From: Escherichia phage T7
DNA: 40,532 bases
Sequence record: LR745707
Strand: one strand, 5' to 3'
Below, one piece after another: positions 10,706-40,532 of this stretch. Within the stretch, counting starts at the first letter, position 1; each line of letters begins with the position of its first letter. The position numbers and the translations under genes were made by a program. The notes under the pieces were generated by a model. The model was not told where the DNA came from. It worked only from the letters and a program-made list of their open reading frames with translations, and made no database searches.

Positions 10706-11160
10706 TGGCTCGTGTACAGTTTAAACAACGTGAATCTACTGACGCAATCTTTGTTCACTGCTCGGCTACCAAGCCAAGTCAGAATGTTGGTGTCCGTGAG
10801 ATTCGCCAGTGGCACAAAGAGCAGGGTTGGCTCGATGTGGGATACCACTTTATCATCAAGCGAGACGGTACTGTGGAGGCAGGACGAGATGAGATGGCTG
10901 TAGGCTCTCACGCTAAGGGTTACAACCACAACTCTATCGGCGTCTGCCTTGTTGGTGGTATCGACGATAAAGGTAAGTTCGACGCTAACTTTACGCCAGC
11001 CCAAATGCAATCCCTTCGCTCACTGCTTGTCACACTGCTGGCTAAGTACGAAGGCGCTGTGCTTCGCGCCCATCATGAGGTGGCGCCGAAGGCTTGCCCT
11101 TCGTTCGACCTTAAGCGTTGGTGGGAGAAGAACGAACTGGTCACTTCTGACCGTGGATAA
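10705..11160 (+). CDS. 3.5: gp3.5 lysozyme (N-acetylmuramoyl-L-alanine amidase; T7 RNAP inhibitor)
   Basis: 151-aa MARVQFKQRESTDAIFVHCSATKPSQNVGVREIRQWHKEQGWLDVGYHFIIKRDG... Confidence 0.95.
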   Translation: MARVQFKQRESTDAIFVHCSATKPSQNVGVREIRQWHKEQGWLDVGYHFIIKRDGTVEAGRDEMAVGSHAKGYNHNSIGVCLVGGIDDKGKFDANFTPAQMQSLRSLLVTLLAKYEGAVLRAHHEVAPKACPSFDLKRWWEKNELVTSDRG

Positions 11161-34622: not shown

Positions 34623-36656
34623 ATGGCTAACGTAATTAAAACCGTTTTGACTTACCAGTTAGATGGCTCCAATCGTGATTTTAATATCCCGTTTGAGTAT
34701 CTAGCCCGTAAGTTCGTAGTGGTAACTCTTATTGGTGTAGACCGAAAGGTCCTTACGATTAATACAGACTATCGCTTTGCTACACGTACTACTATCTCTC
34801 TGACAAAGGCTTGGGGTCCAGCCGATGGCTACACGACCATCGAGTTACGTCGAGTAACCTCCACTACCGACCGATTGGTTGACTTTACGGATGGTTCAAT
34901 CCTCCGCGCGTATGACCTTAACGTCGCTCAGATTCAAACGATGCACGTAGCGGAAGAGGCCCGTGACCTCACTGCGGATACTATCGGTGTCAATAACGAT
35001 GGTCACTTGGATGCTCGTGGTCGTCGAATTGTGAACCTAGCGAACGCCGTGGATGACCGCGATGCTGTTCCGTTTGGTCAACTAAAGACCATGAACCAGA
35101 ACTCATGGCAAGCACGTAATGAAGCCTTACAGTTCCGTAATGAGGCTGAGACTTTCAGAAACCAAGCGGAGGGCTTTAAGAACGAGTCCAGTACCAACGC
35201 TACGAACACAAAGCAGTGGCGCGATGAGACCAAGGGTTTCCGAGACGAAGCCAAGCGGTTCAAGAATACGGCTGGTCAATACGCTACATCTGCTGGGAAC
35301 TCTGCTTCCGCTGCGCATCAATCTGAGGTAAACGCTGAGAACTCTGCCACAGCATCCGCTAACTCTGCTCATTTGGCAGAACAGCAAGCAGACCGTGCGG
35401 AACGTGAGGCAGACAAGCTGGAAAATTACAATGGATTGGCTGGTGCAATTGATAAGGTAGATGGAACCAATGTGTACTGGAAAGGAAATATTCACGCTAA
35501 CGGGCGCCTTTACATGACCACAAACGGTTTTGACTGTGGCCAGTATCAACAGTTCTTTGGTGGTGTCACTAATCGTTACTCTGTCATGGAGTGGGGAGAT
35601 GAGAACGGATGGCTGATGTATGTTCAACGTAGAGAGTGGACAACAGCGATAGGCGGTAACATCCAGTTAGTAGTAAACGGACAGATCATCACCCAAGGTG
35701 GAGCCATGACCGGTCAGCTAAAATTGCAGAATGGGCATGTTCTTCAATTAGAGTCCGCATCCGACAAGGCGCACTATATTCTATCTAAAGATGGTAACAG
35801 GAATAACTGGTACATTGGTAGAGGGTCAGATAACAACAATGACTGTACCTTCCACTCCTATGTACATGGTACGACCTTAACACTCAAGCAGGACTATGCA
35901 GTAGTTAACAAACACTTCCACGTAGGTCAGGCCGTTGTGGCCACTGATGGTAATATTCAAGGTACTAAGTGGGGAGGTAAATGGCTGGATGCTTACCTAC
36001 GTGACAGCTTCGTTGCGAAGAAGTTTCGCCCGGCTGCGCTCGACCCGCGCGGCATGACGCTGGTTGCCGGCGCGTTTTGGGCAGACATCTATCTGCTAGG
36101 CGTCAACCACCTGACCGATGGCACCAGCAAATACAACGTGACAATTGCAGATGGTAGTGCATCACCTAAGAAATCTACCAAGTTCGGTGGAGACGGCAGC
36201 GCGGCCTACAGTGACGGAGCTTGGTACAACTTCGCTGAGGTCATGACTCATCACGGTAAGCGCCTGCCTAACTACAACGAATTCCAGGCGCTGGCTTTCG
36301 GCACGACCGAGGCTACGTCCAGCGGCGGCACCGACGTGCCCACCACCGGCGTGAACGGCACGGGCGCAACGAGCGCGTGGAACATCTTCACGTCCAAGTG
36401 GGGCGTTGTGCAGGCGTCCGGTTGCTTGTGGACGTGGGGTAACGAGTTCGGCGGCGTGAATGGCGCATCCGAATACACGGCCAACACTGGCGGCAGAGGA
36501 TCGGTGTACGCCCAGCCCGCTGCTGCGCTATTCGGCGGCGCCTGGAACGGCACGTCGCTCTCGGGTTCTCGCGCTGCGCTCTGGTACAGCGGGCCGTCGT
36601 TCTCGTTCGCGTTCTTCGGGGCGCGCGGCGTCTGTGACCACCTGATTCTTGAGTAG
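34623..36656 (+). CDS. 17: Chimeric tail fibre: T7 gp17 residues 1 to about 466 fused to a foreign GC-rich 211-aa C-terminal domain recognised as the BPP-1 Mtd C-type-lectin receptor-binding domain
   Basis: 677 aa versus 553 aa for native gp17; T7 sequence through ...LRDSFVAK, then KFRPAALDPRGMTLVAGAFWADIYLLGVNHLTDG...FFGARGVCDHLILE; sharp GC rise from 36021. Confidence 0.85.
   Translation: MANVIKTVLTYQLDGSNRDFNIPFEYLARKFVVVTLIGVDRKVLTINTDYRFATRTTISLTKAWGPADGYTTIELRRVTSTTDRLVDFTDGSILRAYDLNVAQIQTMHVAEEARDLTADTIGVNNDGHLDARGRRIVNLANAVDDRDAVPFGQLKTMNQNSWQARNEALQFRNEAETFRNQAEGFKNESSTNATNTKQWRDETKGFRDEAKRFKNTAGQYATSAGNSASAAHQSEVNAENSATASANSAHLAEQQADRAEREADKLENYNGLAGAIDKVDGTNVYWKGNIHANGRLYMTTNGFDCGQYQQFFGGVTNRYSVMEWGDENGWLMYVQRREWTTAIGGNIQLVVNGQIITQGGAMTGQLKLQNGHVLQLESASDKAHYILSKDGNRNNWYIGRGSDNNNDCTFHSYVHGTTLTLKQDYAVVNKHFHVGQAVVATDGNIQGTKWGGKWLDAYLRDSFVAKKFRPAALDPRGMTLVAGAFWADIYLLGVNHLTDGTSKYNVTIADGSASPKKSTKFGGDGSAAYSDGAWYNFAEVMTHHGKRLPNYNEFQALAFGTTEATSSGGTDVPTTGVNGTGATSAWNIFTSKWGVVQASGCLWTWGNEFGGVNGASEYTANTGGRGSVYAQPAAALFGGAWNGTSLSGSRAALWYSGPSFSFAFFGARGVCDHLILE
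36518..36653 (+). other. DGR variable region (VR) at the 3' end of the chimeric fibre gene
   Basis: About 135 bp GC-rich block matching the remembered BPP-1 mtd VR; codons at recalled template AAC positions read GCC, AAC, GGC, CTC, CTC, TAC, AGC, TTC, TTC, TTC. Confidence 0.6.
36617..36653 (+). promoter_or_regulatory. DGR IMH (initiation of mutagenic homing): 14-bp G/C-only block plus adjacent 23 bp
   Basis: cggggcgcgcggcg (36617-36630) followed by tctgtgaccacctgattcttgag. Confidence 0.6.
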
Positions 36657-36675
36657 CGGGGCCGAAAGGCCCCGC
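36656..36675 (+). promoter_or_regulatory. DGR target-recognition hairpin (8-bp GC stem, GAAA loop)
   Basis: GCGGGGCC GAAA GGCCCCGC immediately after the stop codon; no U-run, so not a typical intrinsic terminator. Confidence 0.7.
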
Positions 36676-36686
36676 CAAGGCAACCG

Positions 36687-36710
36687 GATTTACTTTAAGG
36701 AGGTCAAATG
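36687..36710 (+). promoter_or_regulatory. Duplicated gene 17 ribosome-binding site driving trxA
   Basis: gatttactttaaggaggtcaaatg is identical to 34602-34625 upstream of gene 17. Confidence 0.85.
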
Positions 36711-37037
36711 AGCGATAAAATCATTCACCTGACCGATGACTCTTTTGATACCGACGTGCTGAAAGCTGATGGTGCAATTCTGGTTGATTTCTGGGCAGAG
36801 TGGTGCGGCCCTTGCAAAATGATCGCTCCAATCCTGGACGAAATTGCGGACGAATATCAGGGTAAGCTGACTGTGGCCAAACTGAACATTGACCAGAACC
36901 CTGGCACCGCACCGAAATACGGTATCCGTGGCATCCCAACTCTGCTGCTGTTCAAAAACGGTGAAGTGGCAGCAACCAAAGTAGGCGCTCTGTCTAAAGG
37001 CCAACTGAAAGAGTTCCTGGACGCCAACCTGGCTTAA
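36708..37037 (+). CDS. trxA: Thioredoxin 1 (E. coli TrxA protein sequence), inserted and synonymously recoded
   Basis: 109-aa [109 protein letters not shown]; WCGPC active site; not a T7 gene. Confidence 0.95.
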
Positions 37038-37098
37038 TGATTGGTAAATCACAAGGAAAGACGTGTAGTCCACGGATGGACTCTCAAGGAGGTACAAG

Positions 37099-37302
37099 GT
37101 GCTATCATTAGACTTTAACAACGAATTGATTAAGGCTGCTCCAATTGTTGGGACGGGTGTAGCAGATGTTAGTGCTCGACTGTTCTTTGGGTTAAGCCTT
37201 AACGAATGGTTCTACGTTGCTGCTATCGCCTACACAGTGGTTCAGATTGGTGCCAAGGTAGTCGATAAGATGATTGACTGGAAGAAAGCCAATAAGGAGT
37301 GA
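37099..37302 (+). CDS. 17.5: gp17.5 holin (GTG start)
   Basis: 67-aa track ORF with one hydrophobic segment; RBS caaggaggtacaag upstream. Confidence 0.9.
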   Translation: MLSLDFNNELIKAAPIVGTGVADVSARLFFGLSLNEWFYVAAIAYTVVQIGAKVVDKMIDWKKANKE

Positions 37303-37307
37303 TATGT

Positions 37308-37577
37308 ATGGAAAAGGATAAGAGCCTTATTACATTCTTAGAGATGTTGGACACTGCGATGGCTCAGCGTATGCTTGCGGACCTTTCGGACCATGAGCGT
37401 CGCTCTCCGCAACTCTATAATGCTATTAACAAACTGTTAGACCGCCACAAGTTCCAGATTGGTAAGTTGCAGCCGGATGTTCACATCTTAGGTGGCCTTG
37501 CTGGTGCTCTTGAAGAGTACAAAGAGAAAGTCGGTGATAACGGTCTTACGGATGATGATATTTACACATTACAGTGA
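37308..37577 (+). CDS. 18: gp18 terminase small subunit
   Basis: ATG at 37308 (MEKDKSLITFLEML...) within track ORF 37299-37577; 89 aa. Confidence 0.9.
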   Translation: MEKDKSLITFLEMLDTAMAQRMLADLSDHERRSPQLYNAINKLLDRHKFQIGKLQPDVHILGGLAGALEEYKEKVGDNGLTDDDIYTLQ

Positions 37578-37615
37578 TATACTCAAGGCCACTACAGATA
37601 GTGGTCTTTATGGAT
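37578..37615 (+). promoter_or_regulatory. RNase III processing site R18.5
   Basis: actcaaggccactacagatagtggtctttatggatg hairpin. Confidence 0.55.
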
Positions 37616-37671
37616 GTCATTGTCTATACGAGATGCTCCTACGTGAAATCTGAAAGTTAACGGGAGGCATT

Positions 37672-38103
37672 ATGCTAGAATTTTTACGTAAGCTAATCCC
37701 TTGGGTTCTCGCTGGGATGCTATTCGGGTTAGGATGGCATCTAGGGTCAGACTCAATGGACGCTAAATGGAAACAGGAGGTACACAATGAGTACGTTAAG
37801 AGAGTTGAGGCTGCGAAGAGCACTCAAAGAGCAATCGATGCGGTATCTGCTAAGTATCAAGAAGACCTTGCCGCGCTGGAAGGGAGCACTGATAGGATTA
37901 TTTCTGATTTGCGTAGCGACAATAAGCGGTTGCGCGTCAGAGTCAAAACTACCGGAACCTCCGATGGTCAGTGTGGATTCGAGCCTGATGGTCGAGCCGA
38001 ACTTGACGACCGAGATGCTAAACGTATTCTCGCAGTGACCCAGAAGGGTGACGCATGGATTCGTGCGTTACAGGATACTATTCGTGAACTGCAACGTAAG
38101 TAG
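37672..38103 (+). CDS. 18.5: gp18.5 (Rz-like inner-membrane spanin)
   Basis: 143-aa track ORF with N-terminal transmembrane segment. Confidence 0.9.
   Translation: MLEFLRKLIPWVLAGMLFGLGWHLGSDSMDAKWKQEVHNEYVKRVEAAKSTQRAIDAVSAKYQEDLAALEGSTDRIISDLRSDNKRLRVRVKTTGTSDGQCGFEPDGRAELDDRDAKRILAVTQKGDAWIRALQDTIRELQRK
37787..38038 (+). CDS. 18.7: gp18.7 (Rz1-like outer-membrane spanin, embedded in 18.5 in another frame)
   Basis: 83-aa track ORF nested in gene 18.5; lipobox-like ATISGCASE. Confidence 0.75.
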   Translation: MSTLRELRLRRALKEQSMRYLLSIKKTLPRWKGALIGLFLICVATISGCASESKLPEPPMVSVDSSLMVEPNLTTEMLNVFSQ

Positions 38104-38124
38104 GAAATCAAGTAAGGAGGCAAT

Positions 38125-39885
38125 GTGTCTACTCAATCCAATCGTAATGCGCTCGTAGTGGCGCAACTGAAAGGAGACTTCGTGGCGTTCCTATTCGTCT
38201 TATGGAAGGCGCTAAACCTACCGGTGCCCACTAAGTGTCAGATTGACATGGCTAAGGTGCTGGCGAATGGAGACAACAAGAAGTTCATCTTACAGGCTTT
38301 CCGTGGTATCGGTAAGTCGTTCATCACATGTGCGTTCGTTGTGTGGTCCTTATGGAGAGACCCTCAGTTGAAGATACTTATCGTATCAGCCTCTAAGGAG
38401 CGTGCAGACGCTAACTCCATCTTTATTAAGAACATCATTGACCTGCTGCCATTCCTATCTGAGTTAAAGCCAAGACCCGGACAGCGTGACTCGGTAATCA
38501 GCTTTGATGTAGGCCCAGCCAATCCTGACCACTCTCCTAGTGTGAAATCAGTAGGTATCACTGGTCAGTTAACTGGTAGCCGTGCTGACATTATCATTGC
38601 GGATGACGTTGAGATTCCGTCTAACAGCGCAACTATGGGTGCCCGTGAGAAGCTATGGACTCTGGTTCAGGAGTTCGCTGCGTTACTTAAACCGCTGCCT
38701 TCCTCTCGCGTTATCTACCTTGGTACACCTCAGACAGAGATGACTCTCTATAAGGAACTTGAGGATAACCGTGGGTACACAACCATTATCTGGCCTGCTC
38801 TGTACCCAAGGACACGTGAAGAGAACCTCTATTACTCACAGCGTCTTGCTCCTATGTTACGCGCTGAGTACGATGAGAACCCTGAGGCACTTGCTGGGAC
38901 TCCAACAGACCCAGTGCGCTTTGACCGTGATGACCTGCGCGAGCGTGAGTTGGAATACGGTAAGGCTGGCTTTACGCTACAGTTCATGCTTAACCCTAAC
39001 CTTAGTGATGCCGAGAAGTACCCGCTGAGGCTTCGTGACGCTATCGTAGCGGCCTTAGACTTAGAGAAGGCCCCAATGCATTACCAGTGGCTTCCGAACC
39101 GTCAGAACATCATTGAGGACCTTCCTAACGTTGGCCTTAAGGGTGATGACCTGCATACGTACCACGATTGTTCCAACAACTCAGGTCAGTACCAACAGAA
39201 GATTCTGGTCATTGACCCTAGTGGTCGCGGTAAGGACGAAACAGGTTACGCTGTGCTGTACACACTGAACGGTTACATCTACCTTATGGAAGCTGGAGGT
39301 TTCCGTGATGGCTACTCCGATAAGACCCTTGAGTTACTCGCTAAGAAGGCAAAGCAATGGGGAGTCCAGACGGTTGTCTACGAGAGTAACTTCGGTGACG
39401 GTATGTTCGGTAAGGTATTCAGTCCTATCCTTCTTAAACACCACAACTGTGCGATGGAAGAGATTCGTGCCCGTGGTATGAAAGAGATGCGTATTTGCGA
39501 TACCCTTGAGCCAGTCATGCAGACTCACCGCCTTGTAATTCGTGATGAGGTCATTAGGGCCGACTACCAGTCCGCTCGTGACGTAGACGGTAAGCATGAC
39601 GTTAAGTACTCGTTGTTCTACCAGATGACCCGTATCACTCGTGAGAAAGGCGCTCTGGCTCATGATGACCGATTGGATGCCCTTGCGTTAGGCATTGAGT
39701 ATCTCCGTGAGTCCATGCAGTTGGATTCCGTTAAGGTCGAGGGTGAAGTACTTGCTGACTTCCTTGAGGAACACATGATGCGTCCTACGGTTGCTGCTAC
39801 GCATATCATTGAGATGTCTGTGGGAGGAGTTGATGTGTACTCTGAGGACGATGAGGGTTACGGTACGTCTTTCATTGAGTGGTGA
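38125..39885 (+). CDS. 19: gp19 terminase large subunit (DNA maturase B)
   Basis: 586-aa track ORF. Confidence 0.95.
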
Positions 39886-39966
39886 TTTATGCATTAGGAC
39901 TGCATAGGGATGCACTATAGACCACGGATGGTCAGTTCTTTAAGTTACTGAAAAGACACGATAAAT

Positions 39967-39989
39967 TAATACGACTCACTATAGGGAGA
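39967..39989 (+). promoter_or_regulatory. T7 RNAP promoter phiOR
   Basis: taatacgactcactatagggaga. Confidence 0.9.
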
Positions 39990-40143
39990 GGAGGGACGAA
40001 AGGTTACTATATAGATACTGAATGAATACTTATAGAGTGCATAAAGTATGCATAATGGTGTACCTAGAGTGACCTCTAAGAATGGTGATTATATTGTATT
40101 AGTATCACCTTAACTTAAGGACCAACATAAAGGGAGGAGACTC

Positions 40144-40293
40144 ATGTTCCGCTTATTGTTGAACCTACTGCGGCATAGAGTCACCTACCGATTTCTTGTG
40201 GTACTTTGTGCTGCCCTTGGGTACGCATCTCTTACTGGAGACCTCAGTTCACTGGAGTCTGTCGTTTGCTCTATACTCACTTGTAGCGATTAG
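40144..40293 (+). CDS. 19.5: gp19.5
   Basis: 49-codon ORF MFRLLLNLLRHRVTYRFLVVLCAALGYASLTGDLSSLESVVCSILTCSD after RBS aagggaggag. Confidence 0.75.
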   Translation: MFRLLLNLLRHRVTYRFLVVLCAALGYASLTGDLSSLESVVCSILTCSD

Positions 40294-40369
40294 GGTCTTC
40301 CTGACCGACTGATGGCTCACCGAGGGATTCAGCGGTATGATTGCATCACACCACTTCATCCCTATAGAG

Positions 40370-40532
40370 TCAAGTCCTAAGGTATACCCATAAAGAGCCT
40401 CTAATGGTCTATCCTAAGGTCTATACCTAAAGATAGGCCATCCTATCAGTGTCACCTAAAGAGGGTCTTAGAGAGGGCCTATGGAGTTCCTATAGGGTCC
40501 TTTAAAATATACCATAAAAATCTGAGTGACTA
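40370..40532. repeat. Right-end array of short CCTAAAG-like repeats preceding the (absent) right terminal repeat
   Basis: Repeated cctaagg / cctaaag / cctat units visible; window ends exactly where the right terminal repeat would start. Confidence 0.6.

Follow-up and report, generated by a model that had tools for sequence, protein, structure and literature searches.

The template-directed diversification of phage BPP-1 is the best described counterpart of the locus studied here. In this DGR system, Brt together with Avd copies the RNA of the template repeat (TR), introducing errors at template adenines, and the resulting cDNA replaces the variable repeat (VR), with homing directed by the IMH and a hairpin (PMC3240598). 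The cis elements needed by the BPP-1 DGR target, among them the (GC)14 and 21-bp elements of the IMH, were defined by Guo et al. (2011, PMC3240598), who found that the target requires the 24 bp that follow the VR and a hairpin whose GAAA loop acts in a sequence-dependent manner. The VR encodes part of Mtd, which has 12 adenine-encoded variable residues (Miller et al. 2008, PMC2408619). The Mtd-P1 variant is known from the literature to bind pertactin, and the structure 2IOU contains the Mtd-P1 chain in complex with it. The BPP-1 DGR has also been reconstituted in E. coli (PMC12875486).

A second relevant system is of laboratory origin. Grigonyte et al. (2020, Viruses 12:193; PMC7077284) described eight T7 tail-fibre mutants made by homologous recombination, with trxA as a selection marker on a ΔtrxA host. 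Among the fusions only the one with Yep-phi infected E. coli, while none of the T7-Mtd fusions could infect E. coli unless provided with wild-type gp17 in trans. The supplement of that paper prints an mtd gBlock that includes the VR described below, together with its stop codon and hairpin.

The sequence analysed here, referred to as the window, is the whole 40.5-kb stretch (40,532 nt) of record LR745707, deposited as Escherichia phage T7. The genome is an engineered T7 of Grigonyte et al. (2020) and not BPP-1. The object of interest in it has been described before: it is Mtd-P1, studied more than any other DGR variable repeat, in a copy made in the laboratory, and it brings no new biology. 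The features referred to in the text are as follows.

34623-36656, plus strand: chimaeric tail-fibre gene (ORF), 677 aa, gp17 1-466 joined in frame to Mtd 171-381, with stop
34623-36020, plus strand: T7 gp17 part, residues 1-466 (tail attachment, shaft, pyramid domain), collinear with AY264774 to 36020
36021-36656, plus strand: Mtd residues 171-381, C-type-lectin-fold receptor-binding domain, and stop; synthetic copy
36518-36651, plus strand: VR1, 134 nt, in the Mtd-P1 state, identical at 134/134 positions to the annotated VR1 of AY029185.2
36540-36617, plus strand: variable-codon interval, 12 variable codons, near the 3' end of the 677-codon ORF
36617-36630, plus strand: (GC)14 element of the IMH, CGGGGCGCGCGGCG, GC-only, identical to the TR
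36631-36651, plus strand: 21-bp IMH element, TCTGTGACCACCTGATTCTTG, five mismatches to the TR, at 36637, 36641, 36643, 36644 and 36645
36656-36675, plus strand: DGR target hairpin/cruciform, 8-bp GC stem (36656-36663 / 36668-36675) and GAAA loop (36664-36667)
36708-37037, plus strand: recoded E. coli trxA selection marker, 109 codons, matching E. coli thioredoxin structures over its full length

The variable repeat compared with the BPP-1 template

Positions 36518-36651 were aligned without gaps to the annotated TR and VR1 of AY029185.2 and to the VR1s of BMP-1 and BIP-1, the TR sequence being that of AY029185.2 and not of the T7 window. The VR shows 83.6% identity to the TR, with 22 differences, 17 of them at adenine sites and five in the IMH. 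Within the mutable part, i.e. the first 112 nt, every one of the 17 differences falls on a TR adenine, 23 of which are available (hypergeometric P = C(23,17)/C(112,17) = 1.9e-15), and this restriction of mismatches to TR adenines in the mutable region is a property of a DGR target of the BPP-1 type. All 17 changes are in the first or second position of a codon, as the initial annotation had proposed, and comprise ten A-to-T, four A-to-G and three A-to-C substitutions. Six TR adenines are kept in the VR (36530, 36546, 36547, 36552, 36586 and 36588). Positions 36546 and 36547 belong to Asn346 and 36552 to Thr348, while 36530 is a silent TR adenine, the third base of CTA (Leu340), which was left out of the earlier account of the TR adenines.

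The variable codons correspond to Mtd residues 344, 346, 347, 348, 350, 357, 359, 360, 364, 366, 368 and 369, in agreement with PMC2408619, which describes 12 such adenine-encoded residues; ten of them are altered relative to the TR, and codons 346 (AAC) and 348 (ACG) are unaltered. Eleven had been picked out from the raw sequence, namely GCC at 36540, AAC at 36546, GGC at 36549, CTC at 36558, CTC at 36579, TAC at 36585, AGC at 36588 and TTC at 36600, 36606, 36612 and 36615, and all of these read in frame as given, as does the peptide GAWNGTSLSGSRAALWYSGPSFSFAFF in the reading of ORF 34623-36656. The list omitted a twelfth codon, ACG at 36552, which encodes Thr348 and is unchanged here. The assumption that the TR carries AAC beneath each listed codon holds for 10 of the 11, the TR codon under 36615 being ATC.

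The proposal that alignment to the BPP-1 TR would place differences only at TR adenines is thus borne out in the mutable part, and identity of VR and TR, named as one of two outcomes that would speak against the annotation, is not what we see. The other such outcome, any difference at a non-adenine position, was too strict a test because the IMH contains four fixed non-adenine mismatches; none occurs in the mutable 112 nt. A DGR variable repeat with the signature of adenine mutagenesis was therefore read correctly from the raw sequence, as the alignment confirms.

A chance or compositional origin of the pattern has a foothold in the 68% GC content of the repeat scaffold, which leaves adenines few and clustered in AAC codons, and yet it is to be regarded as extremely improbable given the P value above, a mechanism that is experimentally established (PMC3240598, PMC2408619), the fact that non-adenine differences were looked for in the mutable region and none was found, and the same restriction in BMP-1 (9/9 VR differences from the TR at adenine sites), in BIP-1 (10/11, the single non-adenine difference being a G-to-C at TR position 88) and in the crystallised P3c, M1 and U1 variants.

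The repeat also identifies one specific variant rather than the naive template, as had been suggested, and that variant is Mtd-P1. In a PDB sequence search, query residues 467-677 were identical to residues 171-381 of 1YU0 (the HMMER alignment spans query residues 462-677), and the last 69 residues, all 12 variable ones included, were identical to both 1YU0 and 2IOU. A tblastn search with BPP-1 Mtd gave 100% identity over residues 171-382. The CLec domain is consequently that of Mtd-P1, whereas the full-length Mtd architecture is absent, residues 1-170 being missing and T7 gp17 1-466 standing in their place. The VR is therefore in a diversified, non-template state, that of the reference pertactin-binding P1.

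The closest relative of the repeat is VR1 of BPP-1 (AY029185 / NC_005357; 1YU0, 2IOU), which matches it at 134/134 nt of the VR and has the same 12 variable residues, IMH and GAAA hairpin, with protein identity of 100% over Mtd 171-381. The BPP-1 system differs in having avd-TR-brt and Mtd 1-170, both of which the T7 copy lacks, and BPP-1 mtd differs from the T7 copy by 24 synonymous recodings upstream of the VR. Mtd-M1/BMP-1, Mtd-I1/BIP-1, Mtd-P3c and Mtd-U1 share an identical scaffold with the T7 copy; P3c departs from it at 8, M1 at 9 and U1 at 9 of the 12 variable residues and nowhere else, and PMC2408619 gives a matching figure of 9 differences for M1. A megablast search of 36000-36690 against phage records returned five Bordetella matches (BPP-1 twice, BMP-1, BIP-1 and vB_BbrP_003) and two engineered records named "Escherichia phage T7".

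Target elements and DGR machinery in the window

Downstream of the variable codons the IMH is present in both its parts, the (GC)14 element without any difference from the TR and the 21-bp element with its five mismatches, four of which are at non-adenine bases. The same five mismatches occur in the VRs of BPP-1, BMP-1, BIP-1 and vB_BbrP_003, and they are fixed and not products of mutagenesis. The hairpin ends at +24 past the VR, i.e. within the 24 bp described for the BPP-1 target, and has the 8-bp GC stem and the 4-nt GRNA loop of such elements. Its predicted DNA fold has a free energy of -13.3 kcal/mol (z = -3.3), and none of 200 shuffled sequences folded equally well. The region 36657-36686 is identical to BPP-1 at 30/30 positions. 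The recipient half of a DGR is complete: homology to the TR extends over 134 nt, the IMH has both of its elements and the GAAA hairpin is in place. Retrohoming into it would need an avd-TR-brt donor in trans.

The other half was searched for across the whole 40.5-kb window, with blastn at word size 7 and tblastn at E values up to 10. No credible Brt was found, the best tblastn match being 39 aa at 31% identity (E = 0.38), and no Avd, for which the best match with BPP-1 Bbp7/Avd covered 15 aa (E = 1.2); the noise in the Avd and Brt searches ranged from E = 0.38 to 7. With the TR and avd-TR-brt as blastn queries, only the VR (36518-36651) and the 30-nt hairpin region were matched in the window, and a repeat search for a second copy yielded only T7 promoters and chance pairs. 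Three components of a complete autonomous DGR, Brt, TR and Avd, are accordingly missing from this sequence by these searches, and only the recipient half is present.

These results bear directly on whether the VR owes its state to diversification in this phage by a DGR active in the genome. The intact VR, IMH elements and GAAA hairpin are what such a system would use as recipient. For the present sequence, however, an active DGR is refuted by the missing TR, avd and brt, and we give it practically no credence, the more so as the VR is base for base that of BPP-1 VR1, matches the VR in the printed gBlock and is identical in the sibling record LR745708.1. An alteration of the VR relative to its design is likewise ruled out, since it is the same in BPP-1 VR1, in phAG_3 and in the VR portion of the gBlock. 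Because the window contains no TR, avd or brt, the VR is a frozen relic that cannot change here.

The chimaeric gene, the insert and their origin

Outside the insert the window is collinear and nearly identical with T7, as expected for a T7 derivative: positions 1-36020 correspond to 1-36022 of AY264774 and 37040-40532 to 36286-39778, with eight differing positions in total. The right 160-bp terminal repeat is absent, as expected of a collapsed assembly. In the tail-fibre gene, query residues 1-467 match T7 gp17 (7BOZ) in a PDB search, and the gp17 part, which ends before the receptor-binding tip domain, has a single substitution in residues 1-466, T118A at 34974. The junction reads V464 A465 K466 followed by K F R P, and the GC content rises from 0.48 to 0.62 across it.

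The insert spans 36021-37039 (1019 nt) and contains Mtd 171-381 with its stop, the next 30 nt of BPP-1, a ribosome-binding site and trxA. Compared with AY029185, the Mtd segment has 24 differences between 36026 and 36497, all synonymous and all from G/C to A/T, and no recoding at or past 36518, so that the VR, the IMH and the hairpin are untouched. The trxA gene, preceded by a synthetic ribosome-binding site, belongs to this engineered insert but lies outside the DGR relic. Its product is E. coli thioredoxin, and yet its nucleotide sequence is only 86.1% identical to the native copies of 5374 E. coli genomes, so that the gene must have been recoded. The synonymous GC-to-AT recoding and the recoded trxA are marks of synthetic DNA.

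The nearest record is LR745708.1 (PRJEB35760, gp17-Mtd 163-381), 99.9% identical, whose annotation describes a chimaeric tail fibre of T7 gp17 amino acids 1-466 and the BPP1 tail fibre, followed by trxA. The two share the T7 backbone, the break point after gp17 1-466, the recoded trxA cassette and an identical VR. LR745708.1, which is phAG_3 by its eight extra Mtd residues 163-170, has the 24 nt for these residues and, between hairpin and trxA, a synthetic terminator of 48 nt; LR745707 lacks both and differs further in carrying gp17 T118A and the phAG_4 SNVs. LR745709.1 is the counterpart with a gp17/Yep-phi chimaera, and LR745706 and LR745710 are further sibling records.

Recombination in nature between a coliphage of the T7 type and a Bordetella phage of the BPP-1 type could account for an in-frame junction that is sharp and lies at the edge of a domain, and for the jump in GC content. 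Such an origin is refuted by the published record of construction, which covers this construct and its siblings, and by the recoded marker, which encodes the E. coli protein and yet diverges in nucleotide sequence from every native copy; that 24/24 differences from BPP-1 are synonymous and lower the GC content, and that the flanks are essentially those of wild-type laboratory T7, also speaks against it. The chance that the chimaera arose in nature can be considered negligible.

The VR is almost certainly a cloned BPP-1 Mtd-P1 repeat that was placed in T7 by laboratory construction, a static relic whose diversification took place in the BPP-1 lineage. Under this explanation the adenine-restricted differences from the TR arose earlier, in that lineage, where Brt/Avd copied the TR RNA into cDNA with wrong bases at template adenines and the cDNA retrohomed into the VR. 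The state of the repeat would have been fixed there, copied into the gBlock and, we infer, static since. The synthetic mtd gBlock (Mtd 171-381, stop and downstream hairpin) was joined after codon 466 of T7 gene 17, and the fusion recombined into T7 along with the recoded trxA marker to give a T7-Mtd chimaera with the SNVs of phAG_4. In the resulting fibre the Mtd CLec domain replaces the gp17 tip domain, and the VR encodes twelve residues, now fixed, on the face with which the C-type lectin fold binds its ligand.

Diversification in trans and labelling of the record

All cis elements that Guo et al. (2011) found to be needed by the BPP-1 DGR target are kept in the chimaeric T7 gene. With a complete DGR recipient site retained, the construct could serve as a target for diversification in trans. 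It is conceivable, though on balance doubtful, that an avd-TR-brt plasmid could be used to diversify the T7-Mtd phage, whose receptor-binding domain would then be self-diversifying; a self-diversifying T7 also requires a tail fibre able to assemble and to work, something its authors did not achieve with the construct. If true, this would be a use for engineering that a published construct already offers, and no natural discovery.

LR745707 has the SNVs given for phAG_4 in Table S6 of the paper: 742 T-to-C, 19560 T-to-G and, at approximately 1897-1900, what is here a 2-nt deletion. By its Mtd junction, K171, it is slightly nearer to the phAG_1 row of Table S4 (171-382) than to the phAG_4 row (170-382), and the gp17 substitution T118A (34974) is absent from the SNV table of the paper. 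Neither of these points has any bearing on the identity of the VR.

Single-nucleotide changes and the phage label

Three changes in the window match the published single-nucleotide variant set of phAG_4, one of the T7 tail-fibre mutants of Grigonyte et al. 2020 (PMC7077284):

742, T-to-C, intergenic
1899/1900, loss of 2 nt (AG) following 1899, in the gene 0.6B region
19559, T-to-G, gp7.3 V9G

According to Table S4 of that paper, the Mtd range is 171-382 in phAG_1 and 170-382 in phAG_4. The fusion junction in the window lies at Mtd K171 and so agrees with the phAG_1 row, not with that of phAG_4. Since the variants are those of phAG_4 but the junction is that of the phAG_1 row, the labelling in PMC7077284 seems to be off by one or swapped. 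Comparison with the T7 reference (AY264774) also showed an A-to-G change at 34974 that results in gp17 T118A, a substitution found neither in AY264774 nor in the sibling construct LR745708.1 and having no entry in Table S6 of PMC7077284.

T7 backbone and genome end

Two further differences from AY264774 were found in the T7 backbone:

11060-11061, TG in place of GT
24156, T in place of C

Both are shared with LR745708.1 and are therefore differences of the laboratory T7 stock, not of the mutant in the window. The right end of the window (40532) corresponds to T7 reference position 39778, and the 160-bp terminal repeat lacks its right-hand copy, which probably collapsed in short-read assembly.

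Mtd segment and the downstream marker

Relative to BPP-1 mtd, the segment carries 24 synonymous G/C-to-A/T substitutions within 36026-36497, concentrated at 36143-36269, and none of the 24 falls inside the variable repeat (VR), the IMH element at its 3' end or the downstream hairpin. These changes are consistent with a lowering of GC content for DNA synthesis. In LR745708.1 and the published gBlock, the Mtd hairpin is separated from the trxA ribosome-binding site by a synthetic hairpin of 48 nt that resembles a terminator (TACTCGAACC...GGGGTTTTTTGT), whereas the window lacks this element, at 36686/36687. The marker follows:

36708-37037, trxA, encoding full-length E. coli thioredoxin

Its nucleotide identity to native trxA is only 86.1% (5374 E. 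coli genomes), and it is a recoded synthetic marker.

Among the VRs compared, that of BIP-1 shows one non-adenine difference from the BPP-1 template repeat (TR), a G-to-C change at TR position 88, the only case of this kind.
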